Part shown: positions 1 to 39,758 of the stretch, piece after piece
How the letters are laid out: every line of letters begins with the position of its first letter
How positions within the stretch are numbered: the first letter of the stretch is position 1
Virus genome (UHGV): UHGV-0465656
Source of the DNA: a virus
Length of the DNA: 39,758 nucleotides
Direction: 5' to 3' (one strand)
Made by a program: the position numbers and the translations under genes
Notes under the pieces: generated by a model
Seen by the model: the letters and a program-made list of their open reading frames with translations, nothing else
Database searches by the model: none
Told to the model about the DNA's origin: nothing

Positions 1-55
1 GCTCACCTGTCAGCGGGTCGCGGTAGATGAAGACTTTCTCCTTCTTCTCTTCTAC
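1..55. repeat. 55-bp inverted duplication: exact reverse complement of 1283..1337 (portal codons [19 protein letters not shown])
   Basis: Base-by-base comparison; identity stops at position 56 versus 1282. Confidence 0.9.
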
Positions 56-727
56 CTCGTAATACTCAGCGACGTAGACGACATCATTCGATACCCACGG
101 AAACAGCCATGTATCGTTCGGATTCTGGAAAGATGGCAAGGTATCCGGATCAATACCGTAATCCTCTGCGAACTCTTTCCAGCCATTGCGTGACAAGGCG
201 TTAATCACCGTGCAGTGCTTAGCGTCGCTCTTATCCATCTGCTTGCTGTTGGCGTCCCATATGACGTGTGAGCAGGCTTCATGGATTGGAAGGCGTCGGA
301 TTACCTGATTGTTGCTTGTTGGGTCGTTGTCTTCGTACTGCGTGACCAGACGCCATGCGCCAACGCCAGACTCTATCTGCTCACGAACGCCAACGTTAAC
401 GGCAATTTTTGCCGTGTTATGGCGCATATCAGTACGATACATCCCCATCAGCACATCGGCAGCATCAGGATTAGCTCCGTCTTTTGGTCTGAATAGAACG
501 TCGATAGGGTTCCGGCGCATCTCTGCGACCAGCTTCCTGACCACCGGGCGAACAACATCAAATTGTCCGCGATATTGCAGGGTGGTGTAGTTTGATAGCC
601 AGTCATCCCATTGCGACACTCGGCTAAAATACAGGTCATTTGTCGCCTCGGTTCTGGCTTCATCGCTCGCCATCCAGTCTGCGTCAAACTTACACAGAAT
701 GGAATTGAGTCTGTTTTCGTCGGCCAT
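1..727 (-). CDS. Portal protein, N-terminal segment (aa 1-242), inverted relative to its continuation at 1338..2764; runs off window start
   Basis: Reverse-complement translation from ATG at 727-725: [43 protein letters not shown]..., matching recalled P22 gp1 N-terminus; absent from ORF track because no stop in window. Confidence 0.85.
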
Positions 728-1289
728 TTAAGTTCTCCGTGCGATGGGCCTGATTGGGGCTGGTATCTTTTTCTCTTTTGGTTTTTTGATGTCGCGCATC
801 ATTTTTGCGAAGCGGCGCATCATGTATGCATAGCGAACGGCGGATAGCACGTCGTCGTTAAGCTTGACGATTTTCCCGTTTTCATCACGGTGATAGAGGC
901 GGAACTCCTCAAAGAATGGCTCACAGGTGTTGAATACTTTGAAGCGACCATCAAGCATCATGTCGCGCAATTCAGTGATTCCAGGCTCAACAGCATTACC
1001 GCCATCAGGCCATGTCGCATGATCCTGCAACATCATAAATCCAGCGTCTGCATACTGCCCTTTGAGCTGCTCACCGCCGCCCTTCTCGTGCTGGTTTCCG
1101 TCATGAGGCCATGCGGTTGGCACTTTATGCGCCCATGATTTAACAGCTCCCCATGCCTGAACAGCTGTTTTTTCTTTCGCCTTCCACACGCGTGAAACGT
1201 AGATTGTGTCTGCGTCCTTATCCCACCAAAGCTGAACCTGCGCCTGTGGGTGATCCCATCCGAAATCCATCCCGCCAATTACGTAGAAG
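728..1289 (-). CDS. Terminase large subunit, C-terminal segment (..[31 protein letters not shown].. to stop at 730-728)
   Basis: In-frame part of ORF 728..1501(-); continues the TerL N-terminal part that ends at the window end; N part 331 aa + C part 168 aa = 499 aa, the recalled length of P22 gp2. Confidence 0.85.
1235..1289. repeat. 55-bp inverted duplication: exact reverse complement of window end 39704..39758 (terL codons [17 protein letters not shown])
   Basis: Base-by-base comparison; identity stops at 1290 versus 39703. Confidence 0.9.
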
Positions 1290-2764
1290 AGAAGAAGGAG
1301 AAAGTCTTCATCTACCGCGACCCGCTGACAGGTGAGCCGGTCAGCTATTACCAGCAGGATATCAAAGACGTCATCGACGACCTGGCTAATCGTGGATTCA
1401 TTAAGGTAGCAGAGCGCAAGGTGAAGCGTCGGCGTGTGTATAAGTCGATCATCACCTGCACGCAGATACTGAAAGACCGCGAGAAGATAGCTGGAGAGCA
1501 TATCCCAATCGTTCCTGTGTACGGCGAATGGTCATTCGCTGGTGACAAGGAGTGCTACGAGGGCGTGGTAAGGCTGACGAAAGACGGTCAACGCCTTCGT
1601 AACATGATCATGTCGTTCAACGCCGATATTGTTGCTCGTTCACCGAAGAAGAAACCGACCTTCTTCCCTGAGCAAATCGAAGGCTACGAATACATGTACG
1701 GTGGAAATGATGACTATCCGTACTATCTGCAGAACAGGACCGATGAAAACGGTAACGACCTGCCGATTGGTCCAATCTCCTACATGGAAAACCCTGAAGT
1801 GCCGCAAGCCAACGCTTACATGCTTGAGGCTGCCACCAACGCAGTGAAAGAGGTGGCTAGTCTTGGTGTGGATGCGCAGGCAGCAAACGGTCAGGTCGCT
1901 TTCGATACCGTCAATCAACTGAACATGCGGGCAGACCTTGAGACATACGTGTTTCAGGATAACCTGGCTACCGCAATGCGACGTGATGGCGAGATTTATG
2001 CCTCAATGGTCAACGATATTTATGACGTTCCTCGCCATGTAACGCTGACTCTTGAAGACGGAAGCGAGAAAGACGTTCAACTCTACGCGCAAGTTGTAGA
2101 TTACCAGTCCGGCAATGTGGTCACACTCAACGACATTCGCGGTCGCTATGAGTGCTATACGGACGTTGGGCCATCCTTCCAGAGCATGAAGGAACAGAAC
2201 CGCGCAGAGATTCAGGAGTTACTTACCAAGGTTCCGCAAGGTACTCCAGAGTTCCAGATGCTGATGCTGCAATACTTCACGCTGCTTGACGGTAAAGGCG
2301 TCGAGATGATGCGAGAGTACGCGAACAAGCAACTGGTGATGATGGGGCTGAAGAAACCAGAAACACCTGAAGAGATGGAGATGGTACAACAGGCACAACA
2401 ACAGCCGCAGCAGCCATCAGCAGAGCAAATTCAGGCGCAGGGCATCCTTCTGCAAGGTCAGGCTGAATTGCTCAAGGCAGAGAACCAACAGGCGCAGATT
2501 CAGGTTGAGGCCGCCAAGGTTGAAGCCCAAAACCAACTCAACGCCGCGAAGATCGCAGAGATCTTCAACAATATGGACCTCGACAAGCAGGCAGAACTGC
2601 GTGAGTACCTCAAGCTCGTAGGTCAATTCCAGCAACAGCGCAGCAAAGATGCTCGTGCTAACGCTGAGCTGCTTCTTAAAGATGCAGACCAGACTCATTC
2701 ACAACGCATGGATTTCGCGAATCTTATGCGTCAAGTTCAAATCCCCTCCGGCGGAGTAGCCTAG
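1283..2764 (+). CDS. Portal protein, C-terminal part (P22 gp1-like); the M at 1250 in the ORF track is a junction artefact
   Basis: ORF 1250..2764: ..[47 protein letters not shown].. matches recalled P22 portal; joining 727..1 to 1338..2764 gives a 717-aa in-frame portal. Confidence 0.9.
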
Positions 2765-2789
2765 ACACCTCAATAAGAGAGAGTTAACC

Positions 2790-3701
2790 ATGGACCAAAC
2801 CACCGACATTCAGGCTTCTGAAGAATTAACCCTGCCCGGCAATCATGCAGCGGCATCTGCTGATGGCTTAGTTGTCGATAATGCCAACGACAACGCAGGT
2901 CAGGAAGAAGGCTTCGAGATTGTCCTGAAAGACGATGAGAAACCAAAACAAGACCCGGCAACTAATGCTGAATTTGCCCGTCGCCGCATCGAACGCAAAC
3001 GCCAGCGTGAGCTTGAGCAGCAGATGGAAGCGGTTAAGCGTGGAGAGTTGCCGGAGCACCTGCGGGTGAACCCTGAGTTACCAAAACAACCAGACCCTAA
3101 CGATTATCTTTCCGAAGATGCACTGGCTAAGTACGACTATGACCAGAGCCGCGCACTGGCTGCCTTCCAGCAGGCAAACAGTGAATGGCAGATCAAGGCT
3201 ATGGACGCACGAAGCCAGGCTGTAGCAGAGCAGGGCCGCAAAACTCAGGAGTTCACCCAGCAATCAGCGCAATACGTCGAGGCAGCCCGTAAGCACTACG
3301 ACGCAGCGGAAAAGCTCAACATCCCTGACTATCAGGAGAAAGAGGATGCATTCATGCAACTGGTGCCGCCAGCAGTCGGTGCCGACATCATGCGCCTCTT
3401 CCCGGAGAAATCCGCTGCTCTCATGTATCACCTTGGTGCTAATCCTGAGAAAACACGCCAGTTGCTGGCGATGGACGGGCAATCCGCGCTGATTGAACTC
3501 ACTCGACTGTCAGAACGTTTAACTCTCAAGCCTCGAGCCAAGCCTGTTTCAGAAGCCCCGTTACCTGATGAACCAATTCAGGGACACGCTGTTGCTGCAA
3601 ATATCTCTGCGATTGAAAAGCAGATGGAAGCGGCAGCAAACAAAGGGGATGTAGAGACATACCGCAAGCTCAAGGCGCAACTGAATAAAGGAATTCGATA
3701 A
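2790..3701 (+). CDS. Scaffolding protein (P22 gp8-like, 303 aa)
   Basis: Position between portal and coat; length identical to P22 gp8; conserved block [42 protein letters not shown]. Confidence 0.9.
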
Positions 3702-4223
3702 TTATTTCGATATCGTGATGTTGTTTTCCTCGTCAAACTTTCTGATTACTTCTTTCGCCTCTTCGAATGAAGAACATACTTTTTGCACTCTTGCATTAAG
3801 CAGTCGCTTATGAGCGATCCATCTTTTCCGCGTGTTGCAAAAGTAAACTCCAGATATTCCGCTGGAGTTATTTTTAGATAGTTTGATTCTATTCCTTTGG
3901 TTTGCTGATTTTTTCACAAGACGAAGATTTTCAATTCTGTTGTCGTGGCGAATCCCATTTATATGGTCAATTTCCATGCCTTCTGGAATATCTCCGTTAA
4001 ACATTACCCATACGATGCGGTGTGCTAGCCACTTAATGCCGTTAATTCTTATGCGGATATATCCATTGCTTTCTAAAAGACCAGCAACTTTCCCAGCGTG
4101 TTTTGCATTCCAAACGTTGTGATAGTTGCGATTCTTTTTGTTGTTGAAAAATTCAGAGCTTCTGGCTTTCCAAACCAAAGAACCATCGCGGTATTCGAAG
4201 TATTCATTCAGTTCCATGCTCAT
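3702..4223 (-). CDS. HNH homing endonuclease with AP2-like DNA-binding domain
   Basis: Motif EIDHINGIRHDNRIENLRLV (HNH) plus SGISGVYFCNTRKRWIAH (AP2-like); opposite strand to flanking scaffold/coat genes; visibly AT-rich. Confidence 0.8.
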   Translation of the reverse strand: MSMELNEYFEYRDGSLVWKARSSEFFNNKKNRNYHNVWNAKHAGKVAGLLESNGYIRIRINGIKWLAHRIVWVMFNGDIPEGMEIDHINGIRHDNRIENLRLVKKSANQRNRIKLSKNNSSGISGVYFCNTRKRWIAHKRLLNARVQKVCSSFEEAKEVIRKFDEENNITISK

Positions 4224-4290
4224 AACCCTAATGCGCTATATGTTGATATAACAATAGTATAGCACATAAAGAAAGTAAGGTATTCAATAT

Positions 4291-5586
4291 ATGACTCTCA
4301 AAGAAGGGCAGTTAGTTACTTACGCTATCGATGAAATCATCGAAACCGTCCAGAACCTGACGCCAATGGCGTCCAAAGTGACAAAATACACCCCTCCGGC
4401 AGAATCCATGCAGCGTTCAAGCAACACCGTGTGGATGCCTGTTGAGCAGGAAGCGCCAACGCAGACTGGCTGGGATTTAACTGGCAACGCAACTGGGATT
4501 CTGGAGCTGTCCGTGAAATGCAACATGGGCGATCCGGATAACGATTTCTTCGAGCTTCGTGCAGATGACCTGCGTGATGAGCGTTCTTACCGTCGCCGCA
4601 TCCAGGCATCCGCCAAAAAACTGGCGAATAACATTGAGTCAGCAATTGCCAAACAGGCAACTGAAATGGGCTCGCTTGTTGTTCACGATACCCGCGCAAT
4701 TGGTCCATCTACTGGCCTGTCTGGCTGGGATTTTGTGTCTGATGCAGAGCGCCTGATGTTCTCCCGTGAGCTAAACCGCGATATGGGCATCAGTTACTTC
4801 CTGAACCCTGACGATTACCGTAAAGCAGGCCGCAACCTGGTAGATGGTGACATCTTTGGGCGCGTTCCTGAAGAAGCGTATCGCAACGGTACTATTCAGC
4901 GTCAGATTGCTGGCTTTGATGAAATTCTTCGCTCACCGAAACTTCCGGCAGTTACCAAGTCAACCGCTACTGGTGTAACTGTTTCTGGTGCGCAGAAGTT
5001 TAAGCCGCAGGCATACACCCTTGATACCGATGGTAACAAAGAGAACGTCGACAACCGTGTTGCAACGGTGACCGTATCCTCCACCACCGGATTTAAGCGC
5101 GGCGACAAAATCAGTTTCACCGGTGTGAAATTCCTGTCTCAGATGGCGAAGAACGTGCTAACTGATGATGCGACTTTCTCAATCACCCGTGTGATCGATG
5201 GTACTCACATCGAAATCACGCCGAAACCGATTGCACTGGATGACGCGTCACTGACAAAAGAAGAGAAGGCTTACGCTAACGTAAACACCTCTCTTGCTGA
5301 TACCACTCCGGTAAACGTTCTGAACGTGGCAACAACCACCGCTAACGTGTTCTGGGCTGATGACTCAATCCGCCTGCTGTCTCAGCCGATTCCGGTAACC
5401 CATGAACTGTTTGCTGGCATGAAAACGTCTTCCTTCAGCATTCCAGGCATTGGTGTTAACGGCATCTTCGCAACGCAGGGTGATATCAACACTCTGTCTG
5501 GTAAGTGCCGTATTGCTGTGTGGTATTCAGCATGTGCTGTACGACCAGAGGCAATTGGTGTTGGTCTGCCTAACCAGACTGCGTGA
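4291..5586 (+). CDS. Major coat protein (P22 gp5-like, 431 aa)
   Basis: Near-colinear with recalled P22 coat: ..[64 protein letters not shown]. Confidence 0.92.
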
Positions 5587-5592
5587 TAACCA

Positions 5593-5617
5593 GAGGGAGC
5601 TTCGGCTCCCTTTTTTA
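5593..5617 (+). terminator. Rho-independent terminator after coat gene (GGGAGC-TTCG-GCTCCC + T6)
   Basis: Perfect 6-bp stem with TTCG tetraloop followed by TTTTTTA. Confidence 0.8.
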
Positions 5618-5630
5618 TCTGGAGACAAGC

Positions 5631-5855
5631 ATGACACACATGATCTTTCGTCATGGCGACATGAAGAAGTGGAAAGGCGTTAGCTACGACTTTGAAATCG
5701 TGAAAGCCGAAGAGCTTCAGGAATATCTGGATGCTGGCTGGTTTTCACATCCTGATGACCTTTTGAAGGATGTTGCAGAGCCAGAAGAAAAACAGCGTAA
5801 AAAGCCCGGTCGAAAACCTAAGGCGGCAGCAGATGAACCTGACAACGAAGGGTGA
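5631..5855 (+). CDS. Small hypothetical protein (74 aa, charged C-terminus)
   Basis: ATG at 5631 preceded by GGAGA; in-frame part of ORF 5583..5855; overlaps gp4 start by 23 nt. Confidence 0.4.
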
Positions 5856-6333
5856 TTTAGTTCTTGCGGCATTACGTAAGCTCGGTGTGGCATCAAATGC
5901 CACGTTAACCGATGTCGAACCGCAGTCTATGGAAGATGGCGTCAACGACCTTGAAATGATGATGGCTGAATGGCTTGGCGGTGATGCGTCACCAGGTATC
6001 AACGTTGGCTACATTTTCGCTGATGCAGATGTCGCTCCAGATCCTGGCGATGAACACGGTTTATCAAATAACGCTATCAATGCCGTCATTTTCAACCTTG
6101 CCTGCCGCATTGCTCCGGATTATGCGCTGGAAGCGTCAGCAAAACTTATAACCACTGCCAGATACGGGAAAGAGCGACTCGTCAAACTGTCTGCAATGGA
6201 CAGAGCAAAAGCCGCTAAATGTAAGTCCGGTTATCCAAACCGTATGCCTGTTGGCAGTGGAAACCAGTTGGCGAAGTGGAACGGTTGGAATTACTTCCAC
6301 CGAAAGGAACCTTGCGATAATGGGAGCGAATAA
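5833..6333 (+). CDS. Head completion / tail accessory protein gp4-like
   Basis: From ATG 5833: [33 protein letters not shown].., matching recalled P22 gp4 N-terminus; gene order. Confidence 0.8.
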
Positions 6334-7751
6334 TGCCGATTCAGCAACTTCCGCTTATGAAAGGTGTCGGCAAAGACTTTAGAAACGCTGACTATATCGA
6401 CTATCTGCCAGTGAATATGTTGGCTACACCCAAAGAAATCCTCAACAGCAGCGGATATCTTCGCTCATTCCCGGGCATTGCCAAACGTTCTGATGTGAAC
6501 GGCGTATCGCGAGGCGTCGAGTACAACATGGCGCAGAATGCTGTTTATCGCGTGTGTGGTGGCAAGCTGTATAAGGGCGAAAGCGAGGTTGGTGATGTTG
6601 CCGGAAGTGGTCGCGTATCAATGGCGCATGGTCGAACATCACAGGCGGTAGGCGTTAATGGTCAACTGGTCGAGTATCGCTATGATGGCACGGTTAAAAC
6701 CGTCTCAAACTGGCCTACAGACAGCGGATTCACACAGTACGAGTTAGGTTCAGTTCGCGACATTACGCGCTTACGTGGGCGTTATGCGTGGTCAAAAGAC
6801 GGAAATGATTCATGGTTTATCACTGACCTTGAAGACGAATCGCATCCTGACCGATACAGCGCACAATATCGTGCAGAGTCGCAGCCTGACGGCATCATCG
6901 GTATCGGCACATGGCGAGACTTCATCGTCTGCTTTGGTTCATCGACGATTGAATATTTCTCCCTGACTGGCGCAACCACCGTTGGTGCTGCTTTGTATGT
7001 CGCACAGCCATCACTAATGGTGCAAAAAGGCATCGCCGGAACTTACTGCAAAACGCCGTTTGCTGATTCCTATGCGTTTATCAGCAATCCGGCAACAGGT
7101 GCTCCGTCTGTGTATATCATCGGCTCCGGTCAGGTATCACCAATAGCCAGCGCGAGCATTGAGAAAATTCTCCGCTCCTACACTGCTGATGAACTGGCTG
7201 ATGGTGTGATGGAGTCTCTGCGATTTGATGCGCATGAGCTGCTGATTATCCATCTTCCGCGCCATGTTCTCGTGTACGACGCATCTTCAAGCGCCAATGG
7301 TCCGCAATGGTGTGTGCTGAAAACAGGCCTGTATGACGATGTGTACCGCGCTATCGACTTCATTTACGAAGGCAATCAGATAACGTGTGGCGATAAGCTG
7401 GAATCGGTTATCGGCAAATTGCAGTTCGATATCAGCAGCCAGTACGACAAGCAACAGGAACACCTGTTGTTTACTCCGTTGTTCAAAGCGGATAACGCAA
7501 GAGTGTTCGACCTTGAGGTTGAATCTTCAACTGGCGTTGCGCAGTACGCTGACCGCCTGTTCCTCTCTGCAACCACTGACGGAATCAATTACGGACGTGA
7601 GCAGATGATTGAACAGAATGAACCGTTCGTTTACGACAAACGTGTTTTGTGGAAGCGAGTCGGGCGCATCAGGAAAAATGTCGGCTTCAAATTGCGCGTT
7701 ATCACGAAGTCACCTGTCACTCTGTCTGGCGCTCAGATAAGGATTGAGTAA
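6333..7751 (+). CDS. Tail hub / head completion protein gp10-like (472 aa)
   Basis: Same length as P22 gp10; position after gp4; start overlaps gp4 stop. Confidence 0.8.
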
Positions 7752-8599
7752 TGGCGGATTCGAATCTCAATGTGCCGGTAATCATTCAGGCTACACGGCT
7801 CGACACATCAGTCCTTCCACGCAATATCTTCTCGCAGTCGTATCTGCTTTACGTTATCGCACAGGGCACTGATGTTGGTAACGTGGCTAACAAGGCCAAC
7901 GAGGCCGGACAGGGCGCTTATGATGCACAAGTCAGGAACGATGAGCAGGATGTGATTCTCGCTGACCATGAGCAGCGAATTTCTGCTGCAGAAGCAACGC
8001 TTGTTAATCATGAGGAGCGAATCAGCCAGGCAGAATCAACTCTTCAGGAACATGAAACACGAATCACTCAGAATGAAAGCGATATTGCGTCGCTTGATAC
8101 CAGAGTTCAGTCGCTGGAGTCGCAGGTTTCAGACCATGAAACGCGCATTGATGCTCTGGAGTATGCAACCACACGCAAGAAGTCAGAGGTTGTTTACTCT
8201 GGCGTATCAGTAACCATCCCGACAGCGCCGACCAACCTTGTTAGCCTGCTGAAAACGCTCACGCCGTCATCCGGGACGTTGGCACCATTCTTCGACACTG
8301 TTAACAACAAGATGGTTGTGTTCAACGAGAACAAAACCTTGTTCTTCAAGTTGTCGATTGTCGGGACGTGGCCCAGTGAAACCGCCAACAGGTCAATGCA
8401 ACTAACATTTTCCGGTTCTGTTCCTGACACACTGGTAAGCAGTCGCAACTCGGCGACAACAACCGATAACATCTTGTTAGCTACGTTCTTCAGCGTGGAT
8501 AAAGACGGCTTTCTTGCCACAAATGGCAGCACGTTAACCATTCAGTCAAATGGTGCGGCGTTTACTGCCACAACCATCAAGATAATCGCGGAGCAGTAA
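7751..8599 (+). CDS. Tail needle protein (gp26-like N-terminus, heptad coiled coil, C-terminal knob-type extension)
   Basis: N-terminus [43 protein letters not shown] matches recalled P22 gp26; repeated HE.RI heptads; 282 aa versus 233 in P22. Confidence 0.85.
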
Positions 8600-21064: not shown

Positions 21065-21837
21065 AAATCATCCACCTTAGGCGCAGCTGAGACAGCAACA
21101 TTCCAGAACTCAGAAAACATAATGTATGCACCAGATAGATTGGAAGTGGCATACCCTCCAAGCTCACTTCTAATCTGAACGGCTCTCATCATTTCCGGGG
21201 TTAACTCCTTCGGCACTATAACCCAACCATCCGGAGTTACCGGAGAGTTGCCAGCCTGAACAGTAGGCATATCCGGACCTTTGCGAATCGACCTGGCAAG
21301 ATCGATTGGGTCGTCGTATAACCAGTCACCTGTTTGCGGATGATTGGCTTCTGCCAATTGTGCAGCCCACTCCAGGCCGTCTTTGTGTCCTTGCAGATAG
21401 TCCAGCGGTAACTCATCACTATTACTTACAGGTTCGGCCTGAAGCATGGCGGCGCGATAGGCGTTCCAGCCGACAGCTTTTCCGTGTTCAAACGCGCTGT
21501 CAAAGTCATCATCAATTTCCATCGCAGCGGGCACAGATACCGGCGCTGGCTGGGCGGTGTAGAGCGGCATTACCTCAATATTGAAGATATCCCCCTCGCT
21601 TGGACACGCCTCTGCGCTACCGTAAACCCAATGGTGAACGACTCCGTTACGCTTGTTGATTAATCTGTGCGCCCACGCCACAGGCTCCGCTTCGAGCGAT
21701 GCCAGCGCGATACGCGCATTATTAATCAGGAGGATATCAGCAGGAAATAAAACAACATGAGCGTTTCCCTCCGCATCAATTTCAGAATTCGTAATTTTTC
21801 TGAACAGCTTTGCCAGTTCTTTGGTAATAGTGCTCAT
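21061..21837 (-). CDS. Hypothetical protein (258 aa from ATG 21837)
   Basis: ORF 21061..21876; start chosen at MSTITKELAKL with ATGA overlap to upstream stop. Confidence 0.5.
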   Translation of the reverse strand: MSTITKELAKLFRKITNSEIDAEGNAHVVLFPADILLINNARIALASLEAEPVAWAHRLINKRNGVVHHWVYGSAEACPSEGDIFNIEVMPLYTAQPAPVSVPAAMEIDDDFDSAFEHGKAVGWNAYRAAMLQAEPVSNSDELPLDYLQGHKDGLEWAAQLAEANHPQTGDWLYDDPIDLARSIRKGPDMPTVQAGNSPVTPDGWVIVPKELTPEMMRAVQIRSELGGYATSNLSGAYIMFSEFWNVAVSAAPKVDDL

Positions 21838-22079
21838 GACTGCATTCCCTCCACGCGAGCTTCTATCATGCCCCACACAACTTCGTGCTCAGGCCAGTCG
21901 CTTTCAACAACGACACATGACAGTTCGTCTTTACCGCGCTGCTGCCGAACTTGTTTTACTGCAAGCGCAGCATTTTCCAGCCCGTCCAGCGTTTCAGGAG
22001 AGATCAAACCAGTTTGAAAGGCAGCCTCAATGTCAGAAACCTTCAGAACGAAATAACGATTTTCTCTTTTCACGTTCAC
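21834..22079 (-). CDS. Hypothetical protein (81 aa)
   Basis: ORF track; translationally coupled chain. Confidence 0.45.
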   Translation of the reverse strand: MNVKRENRYFVLKVSDIEAAFQTGLISPETLDGLENAALAVKQVRQQRGKDELSCVVVESDWPEHEVVWGMIEARVEGMQS

Positions 22080-22369
22080 TCTCCTTTACCGGCTGCGGCG
22101 GCCGACTCTTCATAGGCGCGTTTGGATGCATTCATAATGGCCGCCAGCGGTGAGTAAGCCCCTCCACCTGTGATAGTGTTGTGAATGGCAGCCATTGCCT
22201 CGCGCAGATTTCCGTGGCTCGCCTCCAGCTCAGCAATCCTCTTCTCTGCGGCCTCCAGCTCATCCAGCAGCGCCAGAACGGTTTGTGAATGTATATCCAT
22301 GTTGAACACGCCATGCTCTTGAGCTTTCTCTGCTGTTTTGCGCAGCGCCTGTTTGTCGATGTTGCTCAT
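22076..22369 (-). CDS. Hypothetical coiled-coil protein (97 aa)
   Basis: Start MSNIDKQALRK at 22369 (ATGA overlap); shares N-terminal pattern with the next gene. Confidence 0.5.
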   Translation of the reverse strand: MSNIDKQALRKTAEKAQEHGVFNMDIHSQTVLALLDELEAAEKRIAELEASHGNLREAMAAIHNTITGGGAYSPLAAIMNASKRAYEESAAAAGKGE

Positions 22370-23058
22370 TGGGCGGCCTCCTTGCGAAGTTGGGCGGCGC
22401 GAATTGCTTTCCACTGCGACCACATTCCGTTGTAATCAGTACCGGAAAGAGTTGAGTTGCGGTAGCCGTCATCAGTGCGCAAACCTTCTAGCGTGGTCTT
22501 AGAGATGAATATCTTCTCCATTACCCATTCTTCGAATAAATCACGCTCCGTCGCTTCATCTGGAATAGCACTTGCCCGTACTTCAGCCAGGAAAGCGTCG
22601 GTGGCTGGGGTTTTGTTATCTGACTCCAGCCACTGGTTGTAGTAATAATCGAACATGCCAGTAGGATAACCACATCCGCTGTGCACGTGGTCTTTCATAG
22701 CAGAACCACACATGCAGTAGTCATTGTCAGTATTACTAATGATGTCGATAAGTTGCTGTGTCCGTTGCTTCAACATCGCACTCTCCGCCGCCAGCGCCGA
22801 AAACTTCTCGTGTGCCAACTTAACAGCTGCATCAGCCTGCTTAATTGACTCAGTCGCTTTCTGGTGGTCTTCGGCCAGCCCTGCTAAATCAGCCTCCAGT
22901 TCGGCTAGGCGTTCATTTAATGCATCTCGTTCATCCAGTAGAGCCAGCACAACCTGAGGTGTGACTTTCATACGAAATGCCAGCAATTTTTGAGGTGTTG
23001 CTACTGTTTCAATTGCTACTGCTGCCTCACGCAGTGCCTGATAGTTAATTTTGCTCAC
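22366..23058 (-). CDS. Hypothetical protein (230 aa, GTG start), N-terminal coiled coil, Cys/His-containing C-terminal domain
   Basis: (M)[16 protein letters not shown]..; paralogous N-terminus to the 22076..22369 product. Confidence 0.5.
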   Translation of the reverse strand: MSKINYQALREAAVAIETVATPQKLLAFRMKVTPQVVLALLDERDALNERLAELEADLAGLAEDHQKATESIKQADAAVKLAHEKFSALAAESAMLKQRTQQLIDIISNTDNDYCMCGSAMKDHVHSGCGYPTGMFDYYYNQWLESDNKTPATDAFLAEVRASAIPDEATERDLFEEWVMEKIFISKTTLEGLRTDDGYRNSTLSGTDYNGMWSQWKAIRAAQLRKEAAQ

Positions 23059-23636
23059 TGGTTGCCTCCTTTGCGAAGCTGGGCGGCGATATCTTCGAGA
23101 ACGCCATCAGAGAATGAGCGGTCAAAATCTCCTTCCGGTGCATTAGCCATAAACTCAGTTGAGGTAAGAATCATCCGGGCAATATCCGCTGCGTTCTTCG
23201 CAGTATCATCAATAAAACCAGCTTCCCAGGCAGCCAGCATTCTGTTCGCCACAAAGTAAGCGCCTTCCTTGCGTGCTTCAGTCTTCACTTCATCCCAAAA
23301 AGCGTCGGTGACTTGGGTTTGCGGCATCCTTCCGTCTATTGCGCAGATATACGCATCAGATAGTTCACCCTGCTCGCCGTCAAACACGTAGCAACTCTGT
23401 ACGATAAATTTATTCAGCCACGCATTCTCCACAGCCAGCGCCGCGCACTTGGCCTCAAGGTTATCAATCGTGATTCCAGCAGAACGACACTCCCGCAACG
23501 CCGTTTCCAGTTTTGATTCAAGTTCACCGAACTTACGGACAAGGTATTCAGCGTTTGTTTCGTTAACCTTTAAATCTCGTGGGATGCATTTACCTTTCAG
23601 AAAACCATCCATCTCAATTAGTGACATTTGTTTCAT
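23055..23636 (-). CDS. Hypothetical protein (193 aa)
   Basis: ORF track; C-terminus ..[10 protein letters not shown] overlaps next start with the conserved junction motif. Confidence 0.5.
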
Positions 23637-27042: not shown

Positions 27043-28395
<1,353 letters not shown>

Positions 28396-28403
28396 GACAT
28401 TCC

Positions 28404-28435
28404 CGCTCTTACACATCACCGCCCTGAAAAAGGGC
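28404..28435 (+). promoter_or_regulatory. nutR (boxA CGCTCTTA 28404..28411, boxB GCCCTGAAAAAGGGC 28421..28435)
   Basis: Direct read; identical in form to lambda nutR. Confidence 0.9.
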
Positions 28436-28510
28436 ATTACCAGAAACAAATCCTATGGTTTTGCGTTTCTTTGCAAAGCCAACTCTATCTAATCATTAAG
28501 GAAATTATCT

Positions 28511-28792
28511 ATGGGTACTATTGCAACTAAAAGCAAGAAAGCGGCTCGCATCGAGTCAGCCTTGCTGAACAAACTGGCACTGATGGGGCAGAAGACATTC
28601 GCTCGAGCGATTGGTGTTCCTGAATATCAGGTAAGCCGATGGAAGAATGGTTTCTTCTCGCAGGTAAGCATGATGCTGGCTGTTCTGGAATACGGAATCG
28701 AAGACGATGAAATGGCTGAGCTGACTAAGCGGCTTGCCAATTACCTGACAAAAGAAAAAGCCCCGAAGAACGGCGAATTCTTCGAGGCCTGA
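28511..28792 (+). CDS. cII: CII-like transcriptional activator
   Basis: ..RIESALLNKLALMG..SRWK..MMLAVLEYGIEDDEMAEL.. parallels recalled lambda CII. Confidence 0.75.
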   Translation: MGTIATKSKKAARIESALLNKLALMGQKTFARAIGVPEYQVSRWKNGFFSQVSMMLAVLEYGIEDDEMAELTKRLANYLTKEKAPKNGEFFEA

Positions 28793-28826
28793 TGTAGAAA
28801 GACTGGATCAATCCACAGGAGTAATT

Positions 28827-28988
28827 ATGACAAAACGTCGTAAGAAATACCAGGAAAAAGAAGAGATTCGACACCCTGATTCACCTGAGGGATTAGTGGT
28901 AGCCGCAGCAAATAACAGGGCGTTCGCAGAGCGCCTTGTTGGTGTTTACAGACTAGCCAAAGCAGGAGTGAAACATGGGCGTCGTTAA
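28827..28988 (+). CDS. Small hypothetical protein (53 aa)
   Basis: ATG at 28827 after AGGAG; [53 protein letters not shown]; overlaps O-like start. Confidence 0.35.
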   Translation: MTKRRKKYQEKEEIRHPDSPEGLVVAAANNRAFAERLVGVYRLAKAGVKHGRR

Positions 28989-29796
28989 GTTAGCTGATTA
29001 CAGGCCTCAACTGGAGGTCGTGGAGCATCGCGTGGCAGATACCGAAGATGGTTTCATGCGCGTTGCTAACGAGATTACCGACAGTCTGCTGATGGCTGAT
29101 TTAACCGTCCGGCAGCTGAAGGTGATGCTCGCTATCATGCGCAAGACATACGGATTCAATAAGCCGATGGATCGACTCACAAACACGCAGATAGCAGCCA
29201 TGACAGGTATTCATCACACTCATGTTTGCGCTGCCAAGCGCCAGCTTATCGAGCGTAAATTCCTCATTGCTGATGGCGTGAAAATCGGAGTGAACAAGGT
29301 GGTTTCTCAGTGGATTAGCCAGGACAGCTTAACATTAGCTAAAACAGCTAATAAAACATTAGCCAAGTCGGCTAATGGGTATAAGCCAAGTCAGCTAAAC
29401 ACAAAAGACAATATACAAAAGACAATAAATACAAATACCCCCTTACCCCCTAACGGGGGCGGCGATGGGCAGGTTAAACCTGAACGTCGCAAGGCAGAAC
29501 GAATCGACTACGAATCCTTCCTGAACGCTTACAACACCGAAGTCGGTGACAGACTGCCACACGCTGTTGCGGTCAACGAGAAACGCAAACGCCGCCTGAA
29601 GAAAATCATCCCGCAACTGAAAACGCCAAACGTGGACGGTTTCAGAGCGTATGTCAGGGCGTTTGTGCATCAGGCCAAGCCGTTTTACTTCGGAGACAAC
29701 GACACGGGCTGGACAGCTGATTTTGATTACCTGCTGAGGGAAGATTCGTTAACGGGAGTTCGGGAAGGGAAGTTTGCAGACAGGGGGATTGCATGA
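28975..29796 (+). CDS. Replication initiation protein (O-like; P22 gene 18 position)
   Basis: Position before DnaB-like helicase; HTH segment [23 protein letters not shown]; internal iterons and AT-rich tract. Confidence 0.7.
29325..29450 (+). promoter_or_regulatory. Candidate origin: degenerate TAGC(T/C)AA iterons (29325..29400) followed by AT-rich tract (29401..29450), inside the O-like gene
   Basis: Repeated ..ACATTAGCTAAAACAGCTAATAAAACATTAGCCAAGTCGGCTAATGG..AGCCAAGTCAGCTAAAC then ACAAAAGACAATATACAAAAGACAATAAATACAAATA. Confidence 0.55.
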
Positions 29797-31169
29797 AACA
29801 GGATATCGAAGCGAGCGTTATCGGTGGCCTGCTGATTGGTGGATTAACACCAACTGCCAGTGACGTTCTGGCAACGCTGGAGCCGGAAGCGTTTTCAATT
29901 CCGCTCTACCGGAAAGCCTTCGAGGTTATCCGGAAGCAGGCGAGAAACAGAAACCTAATCGACGCGCTGATGGTTGCCGAGGCGTGCGGAGAGGAGCATT
30001 TCACGTCAATCCTGATGACCAGTAAGAACTGCCCGAGTGCCGCAAACCTGAAGGGATATGCCGGAATGGTCGCGGATAACTATCACCGTCGTCTGGTGCT
30101 GGAAATCATGGATGAAATGCGTGAACCAATTCAGAGCGGAACCATCGATACATCGAGTCAGGCGATGGACGAGCTTGTAAAGCGTCTCTCAGCCATCAGA
30201 AAGCCCCGTGACGAGGTTAAACCTGTACGGTTAGGGGAAATCATCACTGACTACACTGACACGCTTGACAGGCGCCTGAGGAACGGAGAAGAGTCAGATA
30301 CCCTGAAGACCGGAATCGAAGAACTTGATGCCATCACCGGAGGGATGAACGCGGAAGACCTGGTGATAATCGCTGCTCGTCCTGGTATGGGGAAAACCGA
30401 ACTGGCTCTGAAGATTGCCGAAGGCGTTGCAAGCCGCGTTATTCCTGGTTCTGACGTCCGGCGCGGGGTATTGATTTTCTCAATGGAAATGAGCGCATTG
30501 CAGATTGCAGAGCGAAGCATTGCCAACGCCGGGAGGATGTCGGTTAGTGTTCTGCGAAATCCTGCATCGATGGATGACGAAGGCTGGGCACGTGTTGCTA
30601 ACGGTATGAGTCAGCTTGCAGATTTGGATGTATGGGTTGTCGATGCCTCGCGGTTATCGGTCGAAGAAATACGCTCAATCGCAGAACGGCACAAACAGGA
30701 AAACCCAAACCTGTCACTCATCATGGCGGATTATCTTGGCCTGATTGAGAAGCCGAAAGCAGACCGCAACGACCTTGCAATTGCTCACATCTCCGGAAGC
30801 CTGAAGGCGATGGCGAAGGACCTGAAAACGCCTGTTATCTCCCTAAGTCAGCTTTCGCGCGATGTTGAGAAGCGACCAAACAAACGCCCGACAAACGCAG
30901 ATTTGCGTGATTCAGGAAGCATTGAGCAGGACGCAGACTCAATCATCATGCTCTATCGGGAAGCGGTATATGACGAGAGCAGTAGCGCCGCGCCATTTGC
31001 TGAAATCATCGTGACGAAAAACCGTTTTGGCTCGCTTGGTACGGTTTACCAGCGGTTCTGCAACGGACACTTTGTTGCATGTGACCAGGATGAAGCCAGA
31101 CAGATTTGCACAGCATCAAATGCGCCGAAGTCTTCCGGCAAGCGCTACGCGAAAGGGGCTGACGTATGA
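29793..31169 (+). CDS. Replicative DNA helicase (DnaB-like; P22 gene 12 position)
   Basis: Walker A in [17 protein letters not shown]; DnaB-like N-terminal domain; 458 aa. Confidence 0.85.
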
Positions 31170-32744: not shown

Positions 32745-33151
32745 AACAAACAATCTTCCTTCGAAGTAAGCAACAACAGCAAGCTGCAATAAATGCCATC
32801 CTCGCAACACCACTCGATAAAGACAAGCCAGTCACCATCCGCATTACTGACTACAAGCGCAACCTTGACCAGAACGCAAAATTTCACGCGATGCTGGCGG
32901 ATATCGCTCGTCAGGTTCAATGGTGCGGAAAATGGTTAAAACCGGAACAATGGAAGGTTTTGTTGATCAGCGGTCATGCAGTGGCAACAAAACAGGAAGC
33001 TGATGTTTTGCCCGGGCTTGAAGGCGAATACGTCAACATTCGCGAAAGCAGCGCGCAGATGAGCGTGAAGCGTATGGCAAGTCTGATTGAGTACACGACA
33101 GCATGGGCTATTGGTCAGGGTGTCAGATTTACCAACAGGAGGTACGAATGA
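32741..33151 (+). CDS. ninB: NinB (Orf-family recombination mediator)
   Basis: ..[53 protein letters not shown].. parallels recalled lambda NinB. Confidence 0.8.
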
Positions 33152-33330
33152 GACGACAGCGACGAAGTTTCACCGACATCATCTGCGAAAACTGCAAATA
33201 CCTTCCAACGAAACTCTCCAGAAATAAACCCAAGCCAATCCCAAAAGAATCTGACGTAAAAACCTTCAACTACACGGCTCACCTGTGGGATATCCGGTGG
33301 CTTAGAGAACGTGCGAGGAAAACAAGGTGA
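33148..33330 (+). CDS. ninE: NinE
   Basis: [60 protein letters not shown], near-identical to recalled lambda NinE. Confidence 0.88.
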
Positions 33331-33497
33331 TTGACCAAAATCGAAGTTACGAACAAGGAAGTGTCGAGCGAGCTTTAACGTGCGCTAACTGCGGTCAGAA
33401 GCTGCATGTGCTGGAAGTTCACGTGTGTGAGCACTGCTGTGCAGAACTGATGAGCGATCCGAATAGCTCAATGTACGAGGAAGAAGACGATGAGTGA
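33327..33497 (+). CDS. ninF: NinF (GTG start, 56 aa)
   Basis: (M)[55 protein letters not shown] matches recalled lambda NinF. Confidence 0.85.
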
Positions 33498-33702
33498 TTA
33501 CCTGAAATGGTATCTCTGTTACCGCTGGTTAATTAAGTTTGCTGTAAAAGACTGGATGACAGCGGATGCCAACAAACTTAAGCAAAGAAAGGACTATTAC
33601 TACGCCAGAATGAAGGAAAACTACTGCTCAATTCGCACTCGCATATTTATTAAAAAAGACCTTCAGTCAATTCTTCAATTGCGAGGGAAGGTAAATGGCT
33701 AA
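33490..33702 (+). CDS. Hypothetical protein (70 aa), AT-rich
   Basis: ORF track. Confidence 0.4.
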   Translation: MSDYLKWYLCYRWLIKFAVKDWMTADANKLKQRKDYYYARMKENYCSIRTRIFIKKDLQSILQLRGKVNG

Positions 33703-33985
33703 TCTACGCAAAGAAGCACGTGGCAGAGAATGCCAGGTACGTATTTACGGCGTATGCAATGGCAATCCTGAAACTACAGTTCTGGCGCATTACCGGATGG
33801 CTGGAATTTGCGGAACGGGAATGAAGCCTGCCGACCTGATCGGCGCATGGGCTTGTAGCGCGTGTCACGATGAAATCGACCGACGTACCCATAACCTCGA
33901 CAACAAAGACGCCAGACTTTACCACCTCGAAGGCGTGATCAGGACGCAGGCGATACTGCTGAAGGAGGGGAAGATTAAACCATGA
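33695..33985 (+). CDS. Cys-rich protein upstream of rusA (YbcO/DUF1364-like)
   Basis: CQVRIYGVCNG..CGTGMKP..WACSACHDEIDRR; same size and position as the recalled E. coli DLP12 ybcO next to rusA. Confidence 0.55.
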   Translation: MANLRKEARGRECQVRIYGVCNGNPETTVLAHYRMAGICGTGMKPADLIGAWACSACHDEIDRRTHNLDNKDARLYHLEGVIRTQAILLKEGKIKP

Positions 33986-34344
33986 ACGAATATCAGTTTG
34001 TGCTTCCATACCCGCCGTCGCTGAACACCTACTGGCGAAGACGGGGAAGCCAATACTACATCAGCGATAAAGGCCAGAAATACCGAAAAGACGTTCAGCA
34101 AATCATCCGCCAACTTAAGTTAGACATTTTCACCAAATCACGACTCTGCATCAAAGTCATCGCAGACGTTCCAGACTCCCGCCGCCGCGACCTCGACAAC
34201 ATCCTGAAAGGTTTACTCGACTCCCTTATCCACGCCGGATTTGCGGAAGACGACGAGCAATTCGATGACATTCGCGTAATTCGTGGCGTGAAAGTACCAG
34301 GCGGAAGGCTTGGAATAAAAATCACCGAACTGGAGAACGCATGA
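33982..34344 (+). CDS. rusA: RusA-family Holliday junction resolvase
   Basis: 120 aa; ..RRRDLDNILKGLLDSLIHAGFAEDDEQFDDIRVIR.. acidic catalytic motif; nin-region position. Confidence 0.85.
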   Translation: MNEYQFVLPYPPSLNTYWRRRGSQYYISDKGQKYRKDVQQIIRQLKLDIFTKSRLCIKVIADVPDSRRRDLDNILKGLLDSLIHAGFAEDDEQFDDIRVIRGVKVPGGRLGIKITELENA

Positions 34345-34529
34345 ACGCCACAATTCAAACGATACCAGAGCTTCTTATCCAGACACGAGGCAATCAGACC
34401 GAAGTGGCAAGGATGCTTTCCTGCGCAAGAGGAACAGTGCTCAAGTACAACCGAGACAGCAAAGGCGAGCGTCACGTAATAGTTAACGGCGTCCTGATGG
34501 TCAAACAGGGCAAAAGGGGAAGGCCATGA
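34341..34529 (+). CDS. ninH: NinH-like DNA-binding protein
   Basis: TIPELLIQTRGNQTEVARMLSCARGTVLKY..VIVNGVLMV parallels recalled lambda NinH. Confidence 0.8.
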   Translation: MNATIQTIPELLIQTRGNQTEVARMLSCARGTVLKYNRDSKGERHVIVNGVLMVKQGKRGRP

Positions 34530-37637: not shown

Positions 37638-38027
37638 ATGGCTAAGGCCAAATGGCACAAACTCCCGGCGTTCACCATTCCGCTGTTTCAAAGTGCACAT
37701 GTCTACCTCGCAACAACCAGAGAACAGTTTCAGCACGCTGATAAATTCCTTGGCGGCAGCGGGGATGAGAAGCCATTCAATCTTGGGTTTGCAAGCAACT
37801 ATGAAAACACTGATACGGGTGAGCGATGCTATCTGATTGGAGTATTCGATCAGCAGATCGCTACGCTCGTTCATGAGTGCGCCCACGTCTGCTTTTACGT
37901 TTGCTCTGATGTCGGCGTGACGACAAGGCCTGAAGATGCCAACGAGACGTACTGTTACATGCTGGACAGGATGGTTAATCACTTCCTGCCATTCATTCAG
38001 GAGAAACAAGATGTATCACTGGAATAA
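37638..38027 (+). CDS. Hypothetical protein with HExxH motif (HECAH), possible zinc metallopeptidase-like
   Basis: ..QQIATLVHECAHVCFYVC..; 129 aa; upstream of terS. Confidence 0.5.
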   Translation: MAKAKWHKLPAFTIPLFQSAHVYLATTREQFQHADKFLGGSGDEKPFNLGFASNYENTDTGERCYLIGVFDQQIATLVHECAHVCFYVCSDVGVTTRPEDANETYCYMLDRMVNHFLPFIQEKQDVSLE

Positions 38028-38205
38028 TCAATCCCCTTATTGCCAATGCCAACGCTGCCCGTGCTGCGGGAAGATTGTTAACCAATTTACTGGCAAAAAT
38101 TTCTTCAAGACTGGTTATGGATATGGTGTTGCGGGTAGCGTTAATTGCTCTGGGGCTGCTGCTGAAACGACATCAAACACAGGCAAGCAGAAAGGAGCTA
38201 AGTAA
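38011..38205 (+). CDS. Small Cys-rich protein (64 aa; CQCQRCPCCGK)
   Basis: ATG 38011 after GAGAAA; in-frame part of ORF 37936..38205. Confidence 0.4.
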   Translation: MYHWNNQSPYCQCQRCPCCGKIVNQFTGKNFFKTGYGYGVAGSVNCSGAAAETTSNTGKQKGAK

Positions 38206-38299
38206 TGGTAATCAAAGTTTGTTCAGGCTCTCAGGGCTTCGACAACCCATCCAAATTCCGCGATGAATGGGATAAGCAAGCAGAAGGGAAATAATCAAT

Positions 38300-38788: not shown

Positions 38789-39758
38789 TAACCTGAGCGA
38801 CGAAGAGCAAATCGAGTTGCTCGAGCTACTCGAAGAAGAAGAGAACTACCGGAACACACACCTGCTATATGAATTTACGCCATACAGCAAACAGCGTGAG
38901 TTCATCGACGCCGGGCATGACTATCCAGAGCGCTGTTTTATGGCTGGTAACCAGCTTGGTAAGTCATTTACCGGTGCTGCCGAAGTCGCGTTTCACCTTA
39001 CAGGGCGTTATCCGGGCACAAAAGGCTATCCTGCTGATGGTAAATATGGCGGTGAGTGGAAAGGTAAGCGTTTCTATGAGCCTGTTGTCTTCTGGATTGG
39101 CGGCGAGACAAACGAGACGGTAACCAAAACGACTCAACGCATCCTGTGCGGTCGTATCGAAGAGAATGACGAGCCAGGCTACGGTTCCATACCGAAAGAA
39201 GACATCATTAGCTGGAAGAAGTCTCCTTTCTTTCCGAACCTTGTTGATCATCTTCTGGTTAAGCATCACACGGCTGATGGCGTTGAAGATGGCATTTCAA
39301 TCTGCTACTTCAAACCATACTCGCAAGGCCGTGCTCGCTGGCAGGGTGACACAATCCACGGCGTGTGGTTTGACGAAGAGCCACCATACAGCATTTATGG
39401 TGAAGGTCTTACCCGTACCAACAAATACGGGCAATTCTCAATTCTGACGTTTACCCCGCTTATGGGGATGTCTGACGTTGTTACCAAGTTCCTGAAGAAT
39501 CCCAGCAAGTCTCAGAAAGTGGTCAACATGACCATCTATGACGCTGAGCACTACACCGACGAGCAGAAAGAGCAAATCATCGCATCCTATCCTGAGCATG
39601 AGAGAGAGGCGCGTGCTCGCGGTATTCCTACGATGGGTAGTGGTCGAATCTTCCAGATACCGGAAGAGACGATTAAGTGTCAGCCGTTCGAGTGCCCTGA
39701 TCACTTCTACGTAATTGGCGGGATGGATTTCGGATGGGATCACCCACAGGCGCAGGTT
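38766..39758 (+). CDS. Terminase large subunit, N-terminal part (GTG start; aa 1-331), truncated by window end; continuation is the inverted segment 1234..728
   Basis: (M)[73 protein letters not shown].. matches recalled P22 gp2; absent from ORF track because it lacks an in-window stop. Confidence 0.9.

Follow-up and report, generated by a model that had tools for sequence, protein, structure and literature searches.

A 173-aa open reading frame (ORF) at 3702-4223 on the minus strand of UHGV virus genome UHGV-0465656 is, judging from its sequence and that of its relatives, likely to be a free-standing homing endonuclease gene (HNH_3 and AP2-like), and it forms part of a cassette of about 630 bp placed exactly between the scaffold stop codon and the coat start codon of a P22-like phage (Lederbergvirus) of E. 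coli. Positions given below are those of the window, that is, the whole stretch of 39,758 nucleotides that was analysed.

The putative homing endonuclease and its neighbours

The original prediction had described an AT-rich 173-aa HNH ORF on the minus strand, placed between the scaffold and coat morphogenesis genes and convergent with the scaffold gene, with the stop codons adjacent at 3701/3702; all of these points were confirmed. The scaffold stop codon TAA (3699-3701) abuts the reverse-complemented stop codon of the endonuclease gene (TTA, 3702-3704), and the GC content is 0.389 in the endonuclease ORF, 0.529 in the scaffold gene and 0.510 in the coat gene (0.38-0.40 over 3600-4350 versus 0.50-0.56 in the flanks). 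In P22, the scaffold and coat genes are co-transcribed in the late operon. The features of the region are as follows.

2790..3701, plus strand: scaffolding protein gene (P22 gene 8 homologue; PF09306, E=1.7e-179)
3702..4223, minus strand: endonuclease ORF, 173 aa, ATG start (ORF list, Pfam and PHROG matches)
3726..3863, minus strand: C-terminal AP2-like putative DNA-binding domain, residues ~121-166, three strands and a helix (predicted fold and homologues)
3894..4028, minus strand: HNH_3 nuclease domain, residues 66-110 (Pfam)
4224..4290, no strand assigned: spacer of 67 nt that arrives with the gene (missing in empty-site genomes)
4231..4267, no strand assigned: inverted repeat with arms at 4231-4240 and 4258-4267, overlapping the putative -10 element (repeats in all four lineages)
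4256..4264, minus strand: putative extended -10 element TGCTATACT for the endonuclease gene (read from the sequence)
4276..4290, plus strand: replacement coat ribosome-binding site TAAGGTATTCAATAT before the ATG (blastn and conservation)
4291..4329, plus strand: endonuclease-linked recoded tract, first 13 coat codons (14 substitutions relative to empty allele A)
4291..5586, plus strand: coat protein gene (P22 gene 5 homologue; PF11651, E=1.5e-164)

The Pfam HNH_3 profile matched residues 66-110 of the ORF (E=3.9e-22, 78 bits with a cutoff of 24.8), the HNH motif EIDHINGIRHDNRIENL occupies residues 84-100, and PHROG 99 ('HNH endonuclease') was matched with E=1.3e-50. No family was matched when the ORF was searched against NCBIfam, the PADLOC matches were to generic homing endonuclease models only, and GenBank and RefSeq records already label the gene 'HNH endonuclease'. 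As for the AP2-like segment claimed by the original prediction, the fold was recovered and the profile match was not: residues 126-166 form three strands and a helix in an AlphaFold2 model built on 58 homologues (pLDDT 87.6), whereas the Pfam AP2 match was partial and sub-threshold (E=0.019), so that the assignment comes from the predicted fold and the homologues. The residues D86, H87, N99 and N108, taken as catalytic, are unchanged across the 58 homologues and align with the active-site region of the homing endonuclease I-HmuI, which is the nearest solved structure (PDB 1U3E); the ORF protein also has the I-HmuI-type HNH core fold and the N-terminal beta DNA-binding region. The AGGG ribosome-binding site (4226-4229) is more favourably spaced from a second ATG of the ORF, at 4217. 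The gene is not encoded in a group I intron: the ORFs on either side of it, both on the other strand, are complete, and no gene is interrupted. A family profile search of the window yielded no second member of the scaffold-coat endonuclease family.

Occupied and empty junctions

The occupied site was also found in Escherichia phages Louie and Dewey (98.6-98.7% identical over the scaffold-coat region by megablast), and the endonuclease protein is 100% identical in Louie, Dewey and the window. In IME10, APC_JM3.2, HZ41 and CurroJimenez/Bas106 (97-98% identical; flanks, 97-99%), 590 bp are missing, and the scaffold stop and coat start codons overlap as TAATG at the empty site. The comparison of the scaffold-coat region with P22-like relatives, which the original prediction had proposed for defining an empty site, thus gave a clean presence/absence polymorphism. 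Two features of intronless homing are found here, namely an intergenic insert with a precise empty site in close relatives and a homing-family nuclease with intact catalytic residues.

Among 5,426 complete E. coli genomes, about 217 carried a related prophage junction. The common empty junction (allele A, ...CGATAATGGCATTAAATGAAGGTCAACTGGTCACGTATGCTCTGGAT...) was found in 189 of them, a hybrid empty junction (allele B) in 8 and the occupied junction (allele O) in 20; the corresponding numbers of IMG/VR contigs were at least 120, 3 and 12. Since the occupied allele makes up only about 9% of the E. coli junctions (allele A, about 87%), it is not sweeping through the population. The endonuclease ORF was intact, with 0-1 aa changes, in all complete phage and IMG/VR copies read, this check covering the phage and IMG/VR copies and, in part, the 20 E. 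coli copies. In E. coli EEC_W5 (CM130020; L029, 3795-4309), a 1-nt deletion (TTTAACGG to TTTACGG) just before the HNH motif splits the gene into ORFs of 85 aa and 102 aa; the deletion may mean that the element is decaying, or it may be an error in sequencing a homopolymer. One further locus (L294), found by a scan with the pattern GAAGGGCAG-N18-GAYGARATCRT, was an unrelated chance match and was discarded.

A recoded tract at the 5' end of the coat gene

When the occupied allele was compared with allele A, 14 differences fell within coat nt 4-39 (39-nt tract) and 26 in the other 1257 nt (Poisson P=2.7e-13), and the last 60 nt of the scaffold gene had 0-1 differences. Ten codons are changed in the tract, seven of them synonymously and three conservatively (A2T, N4K and L13I). 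The tract is perfectly linked to the gene, it is invariant across the 14 endonuclease-bearing copies analysed for diversity, and A-type bases occur within it in endonuclease-bearing copies at one synonymous site only, in a few copies. Over 5.8 kb (window 1290-7100; 14 occupied versus 124 A-type sequences), an allele-frequency difference above 0.5 was seen only at 4281-4329; as the A- and O-type loci from IMG/VR were retrieved by the junction pattern, the fixation at 4291-4325 in the IMG/VR sets is partly by construction, and the E. coli counts are unaffected by this. Polymorphisms at 3347-3671 and 4374-4782 have equal frequencies in occupied and empty genomes, the nearest common ones being at 3671 (left) and 4374 (right). 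Among the occupied copies, nucleotide diversity is 0.0034 in the cassette (3702-4329), 0.0117 in the scaffold gene and 0.0197 in the rest of the coat gene, that is, 3-6 times lower in the cassette than in its flanks.

From these patterns, the apparent travelling unit consists of the gene and its spacer together with 39 nt from the start of the coat gene, in shuffled backgrounds. Recombination has randomised sites only 31 nt (left) and 45 nt (right) from the tract and should have eroded it too, had it been neutral; its retention suggests selection against carriers with a cleavable site and a target in the coat 5' end. We predict, therefore, that the tract confers self-immunity and marks the target. 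For annotation, linkage to the endonuclease also accounts for the sharply bounded 39 nt of synonymous divergence with which the coat gene begins.

A hybrid empty allele

Allele B, carried by eight E. coli prophages and three IMG/VR contigs (for example, L020 3001-3058, in the E. coli ECONIH6 prophage; L021; L150-L152), lacks the endonuclease gene and retains TAATG; in its coat gene, nt 1-11 are A-type and nt 12-39 O-type. Coat nt 12-39 of allele B are identical to the endonuclease-linked tract, and its right-hand boundary is the same as that of allele O. Because the O-type codons 2-3 (ATGACTCT...) also occur in the nearest of the other lineages with the endonuclease, all 39 nt of the tract probably arrived with the gene. 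This arrival and the shared right-hand boundary suggest that allele B was derived from allele O and was not its ancestor; it looks like allele O minus the gene and coat nt 1-11. Speculatively, a breakpoint in the shared AA at nt 10-11 would fit an aborted homing event with one-sided co-conversion and a cut near coat nt 10-12. Allele B may be a resistant or escape empty site, or a product of aborted homing. Deletion between direct repeats was considered for its origin and rejected, since the sequence is A-type through coat nt 11, which places the breakpoint inside the coat gene and not in the duplicated ribosome-binding-site region.

Spacer, coat ribosome-binding site and putative promoter

In genomes without the insert, the 3' end of the scaffold gene (AAAGGAATTCGATAA) holds the coat ribosome-binding site. 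Window 4277-4345 was aligned by blastn to the empty-site junction from 13 nt upstream of the coat ATG, with 75% identity, and the ribosome-binding site in the spacer resembles the scaffold 3' end (AAAGGAATTCGATA), of which it may be a diverged copy. The three other endonuclease-bearing lineages (see below) have a corresponding spacer of 60-67 nt, and the coat ribosome-binding-site-like element is similar in all four. The case shows how a phage can remain viable when an insertion parts its translationally coupled scaffold and coat genes, the insert bringing a ribosome-binding site of its own.

All four lineages have TATACT or TATAAT where the putative -10 element lies in the window. A consensus scan of 3300-4700 called no sigma-70 two-hexamer promoter in the spacer, and no good -35 element was found at 16-18 nt; the proposal of an own promoter for the endonuclease gene, which draws on the conservation of the -10 element in the four lineages, is tentative. 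Perfect or near-perfect inverted repeats of 7-10 bp, unrelated in sequence, are found at the same place, overlapping the -10-like element, in all four lineages (in the others, L022 913-935, L027 1413-1434 and L028 2795-2823), and the fold z-scores of the endonuclease-sense RNA are -2.65, -4.22, -3.10 and -3.13. In the outer stem of this RNA, the endonuclease ribosome-binding site is paired with the sequence complementary to that of the coat gene, which is partly to be expected where the two sites lie on opposite strands and face one another. Tentatively, transcripts from the embedded promoter, which would lack the 5' arms, would be translatable, and in read-through antisense RNA the ribosome-binding site would be sequestered. 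Such a scheme would resemble the control of endonuclease expression in T4 (PMC2988022). The inverted repeat could also act as an operator or RNA switch, or be where the late mRNA is processed.

Transcription of the late operon across the gene is expected to silence the endonuclease late in infection. Transcriptional interference had been raised in the original prediction; a lethal effect is contradicted by Louie and Dewey, which were isolated as plaque-forming temperate phages and form plaques and lysogens (PMC11990801), so that any interference with coat expression must be tolerable. Terminator-like hits over 3300-4700 numbered 4, with 1.9 +/- 1.5 expected, and were not above chance. A hairpin with an 8-bp stem at 3846-3869, inside the endonuclease ORF (SSGISG region) and with T-runs on the plus (ATTTTTAGAT) and minus (TACTTTTGCA) strands, looks like a bidirectional terminator; on the plus strand it would lie in the path of late transcription.

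Proposed mechanism of homing

We infer nuclease activity, the location of the cut, immunity, the promoter and homing itself from the sequence comparisons, and propose the following. A promoter of its own, in the 67-nt spacer, would drive transcription of the endonuclease gene in antisense to the late operon, and a relative with allele A in the same cell would be nicked or cut within or beside the first ~40 nt of its coat gene. The break would be repaired off the endonuclease-bearing genome by phage recombination functions, which is plausible because the window encodes Erf (E=2.4e-44) and the anti-RecBCD protein Abc2 (E=1.6e-35), and the repair would copy the endonuclease gene and the spacer along with 39 nt from the start of the donor coat gene. 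The carrier would be protected, as the insert divides its site and 14 positions are recoded. The insertion would part the coat gene from its ribosome-binding site in the scaffold 3' end and break TAATG, and the cassette would bring the replacement. With the empty site, the intact catalytic residues, the linked recoded tract and I-HmuI as the nearest structure, the reading of the ORF as a mobile homing endonuclease, with which the original prediction had started, is supported. Several points can be set against homing: the parallel divergence in four lineages (see below) fits long vertical residence as well as repeated homing among close relatives, the unlinked flanks could reflect high general recombination among P22-like prophages without conversion driven by the nuclease, the occupied allele is infrequent, and the consensus scan called no promoter.

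Divergent lineages and age of the gene

A search of 5.8 billion proteins gave homologues of 82, 74 and 59% identity, each encoded antisense between the scaffold and coat genes of divergent P22-like phages, and the endonuclease stop codon abuts the scaffold stop codon in two of the three. Amino acid identities (global alignment for the endonuclease) are as follows.

82% lineage: endonuclease 82%, coat 89%, scaffold 76%
74% lineage: endonuclease 73%, coat 74%, scaffold 74%
59% lineage: endonuclease 61%, coat 69%, scaffold 49%

In these lineages the GC content of the endonuclease gene is 0.42-0.45, versus 0.52-0.55 of its neighbours. Between lineages, pN/pS of the endonuclease gene is 0.14-0.28 (pN, 0.10-0.26), with synonymous sites saturated, and dN/dS is 0.055 for the closest lineage pair. 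The clade of the scaffold-coat junction (59-100% identity) is separated by a gap from the next relatives (50% or less over most of the protein), which occupy other sites, in T1-like siphoviruses and other phages. A search of species-representative genomes with the clade profile gave no further lineage (nothing above 49% identity), and a profile scan of IMG/VR gave the 12 near-identical copies and then only partial matches of 60% identity or less. Because the homologues diverge in step with the flanks under purifying selection, the endonuclease, as traced by these sequences, is an old, site-faithful resident of the scaffold-coat junction and not a recent arrival. Its persistence under purifying selection would be expected if it keeps re-invading close relatives, or if its carriers benefit from it. 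The original prediction had named, as an observation against mobility, the same gene at the same position in related genomes with a composition like that of vertical descent; the shared junction and the parallel divergence were indeed found, whereas the composition is AT-rich and the gene is polymorphic in the densely sampled lineage.

It is unlikely that the gene is an inert relic or hitch-hiker that homed only in the past, in which case its patchiness and unlinked flanks would come from ordinary recombination and the tract would be a leftover donor flank. Such a history agrees with the divergence parallel to the flanking genes in four lineages, with the low frequency (~9%) and with the one frameshifted copy (EEC_W5), but it does not readily explain why all complete phage and IMG/VR copies read are intact, why purifying selection is strong despite saturated synonymous sites, why the catalytic residues are invariant, or why the diversity of the cassette is 3-6 times below that of flanks whose recombination should have eroded a neutral tract.

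Possible role in competition between phages

The endonuclease might, alternatively, serve as a weapon of competition or defence that cuts the coat start of co-infecting or superinfecting relatives without the gene, perhaps from a prophage, with conversion as a by-product. This reading overlaps homing and does not exclude it, and as an account of its own we consider it quite unlikely. The apparent sigma-70-type -10 element, which would make expression independent of the late promoter, the long-term purifying selection, unusual in a purely selfish element, and the presumed sensitive site in ~87% of related prophages are all consistent with it; allele B could be an escape allele, and there are precedents for endonuclease-mediated interference and marker exclusion (PMC2988022; PMC11620839). 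PADLOC, however, gave generic homing endonuclease models and no defence system, the gene has no partner genes, and plain homing also accounts for everything observed.

A more detailed version, which we regard as doubtful, would combine these elements: the antisense nuclease would be expressed from its own sigma-70-type promoter, lying in a lineage-specific hairpin, in lysogens or early in infection, would be silenced by late transcription, and, being more than a gene drive, would act as a prophage-borne weapon by cutting the coat start in the ~87% of relatives with the presumed sensitive site; allele B would then be an escape allele or a product of aborted homing, its breakpoint marking a cut near coat nt 10-12.

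P22-like phages package their DNA by a headful (pac) mechanism. An accessory role in packaging or morphogenesis, with the HNH protein aiding the terminase as in HK97-like cos phages (HK97 gp74 type) or aiding head assembly, is very improbable, for although the gene lies inside the head-gene cluster, it is antisense to the operon and away from the terminase gene, it is missing in ~90% of near-identical relatives, including the viable IME10, APC_JM3.2 and CurroJimenez, and its product is HNH_3 plus AP2-like with a homing endonuclease as the nearest solved structure.

Comparison with known systems

For the preferred reading, a homing endonuclease gene, the closest parallels are the free-standing endonuclease genes of the T-even phages (mobA-E, HNH; segA-G, GIY-YIG), for which 'intronless homing', marker exclusion and co-conversion are reviewed in PMC2988022; segD of T4 adjoins the major capsid gene (PMC2988022, Table 1). 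As in the T-even phages, an intergenic nuclease gene is present or absent among close relatives between conserved essential genes, and the presumed target is in a neighbouring gene, where the carrier has clustered substitutions. Flanking sequence is co-converted in the T-even systems (PMC2988022), and the recoded tract would be the matching signature here. Unlike the T-even systems, the host is a temperate P22-like podovirus or prophage and not a virulent phage, the gene is antisense to the operon that it interrupts, the presumed target is within ~40 nt of the insertion and not hundreds of bp away, and the putative DNA-binding domain is AP2-like, with activity deduced from the sequence.

Homing endonucleases that combine HNH and AP2 domains form a recognised family (Magnani et al. 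2004, cited in PMC10448857), to which the 'IPA-HNH' genes of ICP1 and other phages belong; its members are often located beside capsid, terminase or replication genes (PMC10448857). The window protein resembles this family in its N-terminal HNH domain, matched by HNH_3, and in the predicted AP2-type three strands plus helix at its C-terminus; unlike the atypical ICP1 members, it strongly matches the canonical Pfam HNH_3. It also differs from I-HmuI, an intron-encoded HNH nicking enzyme of the Bacillus phage SPO1, in being encoded by a free-standing gene and in having an AP2-like C-terminus, and the identity between the two is ~22%. I-HmuI is encoded in a group I intron and has a C-terminal helix-turn-helix domain. 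Outside the P22-junction clade, the closest genes (39-49% identity) are HNH_3 genes of T1-like siphoviruses (Drexlerviridae, for example Klebsiella phage KLPN1, Escherichia phage DTL and Shigella phage Sf12) and of Pantoea phage PdC23, several of which adjoin head morphogenesis genes, like the window gene, but in different phage families and at different insertion sites.

In our literature searches, no paper was found that describes an endonuclease between P22-type scaffold and coat genes, its empty site or the linked tract, and the BASEL paper that reports Louie and Dewey leaves the endonuclease unmentioned (PMC11990801). Nearly all that has been established about free-standing homing endonucleases comes from the virulent T-even phages; the present case offers a natural three-allele system (presumed sensitive empty, occupied and hybrid empty) in P22-like temperate phages, a classical genetic model. 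As plaque-forming isolates with the occupied (Louie and Dewey) and empty (CurroJimenez/Bas106) sites exist in one collection with the same E. coli K-12 host, cleavage mapping, crosses and exclusion tests are feasible.

Other observations on the window and its relatives

Dewey and Louie carry four to six additional HNH annotations in the early and nin regions; the further genes annotated as 'HNH endonuclease' are at 21816-22355, 29260-30060, 33685-34462 and 37703-38254 in Dewey (L007) and at 22694-23161, 28241-29041 and 32852-33629 in Louie (L008).

At the ends of the window (1-1337 and 39701-39758), the following was noted. Window 1-1292 is the reverse complement of Dewey 1402-2693, a segment that in both Dewey and Louie spans the end of the large terminase gene (C-terminal half) and the beginning of the portal gene (N-terminal part), window 38300-39758 matches Dewey 1-1459, and the window from 1283 onward matches Dewey from 2639 onward. 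The terminase and portal ORFs are broken as the window is written: the ORF at 728..1501 (minus strand) holds Terminase_6C, and that at 1250..2764 (plus strand) holds portal profile positions 209-594 only. Reverse-complemented, window 1-55 is identical to 1283-1337. This inverted duplication of 55 nt at the joint looks like an assembly artefact, though it may be a real inversion.

A 90-aa ORF at 5583-5855 overlaps the coat stop codon, and the annotation between the coat gene and the gp4-like gene differs among relatives. The identity of Dewey and Louie to the window is 94.7% at 5776-7959, versus 98.5% at the scaffold-coat region, and the stretch downstream of the coat gene seems to be more variable.
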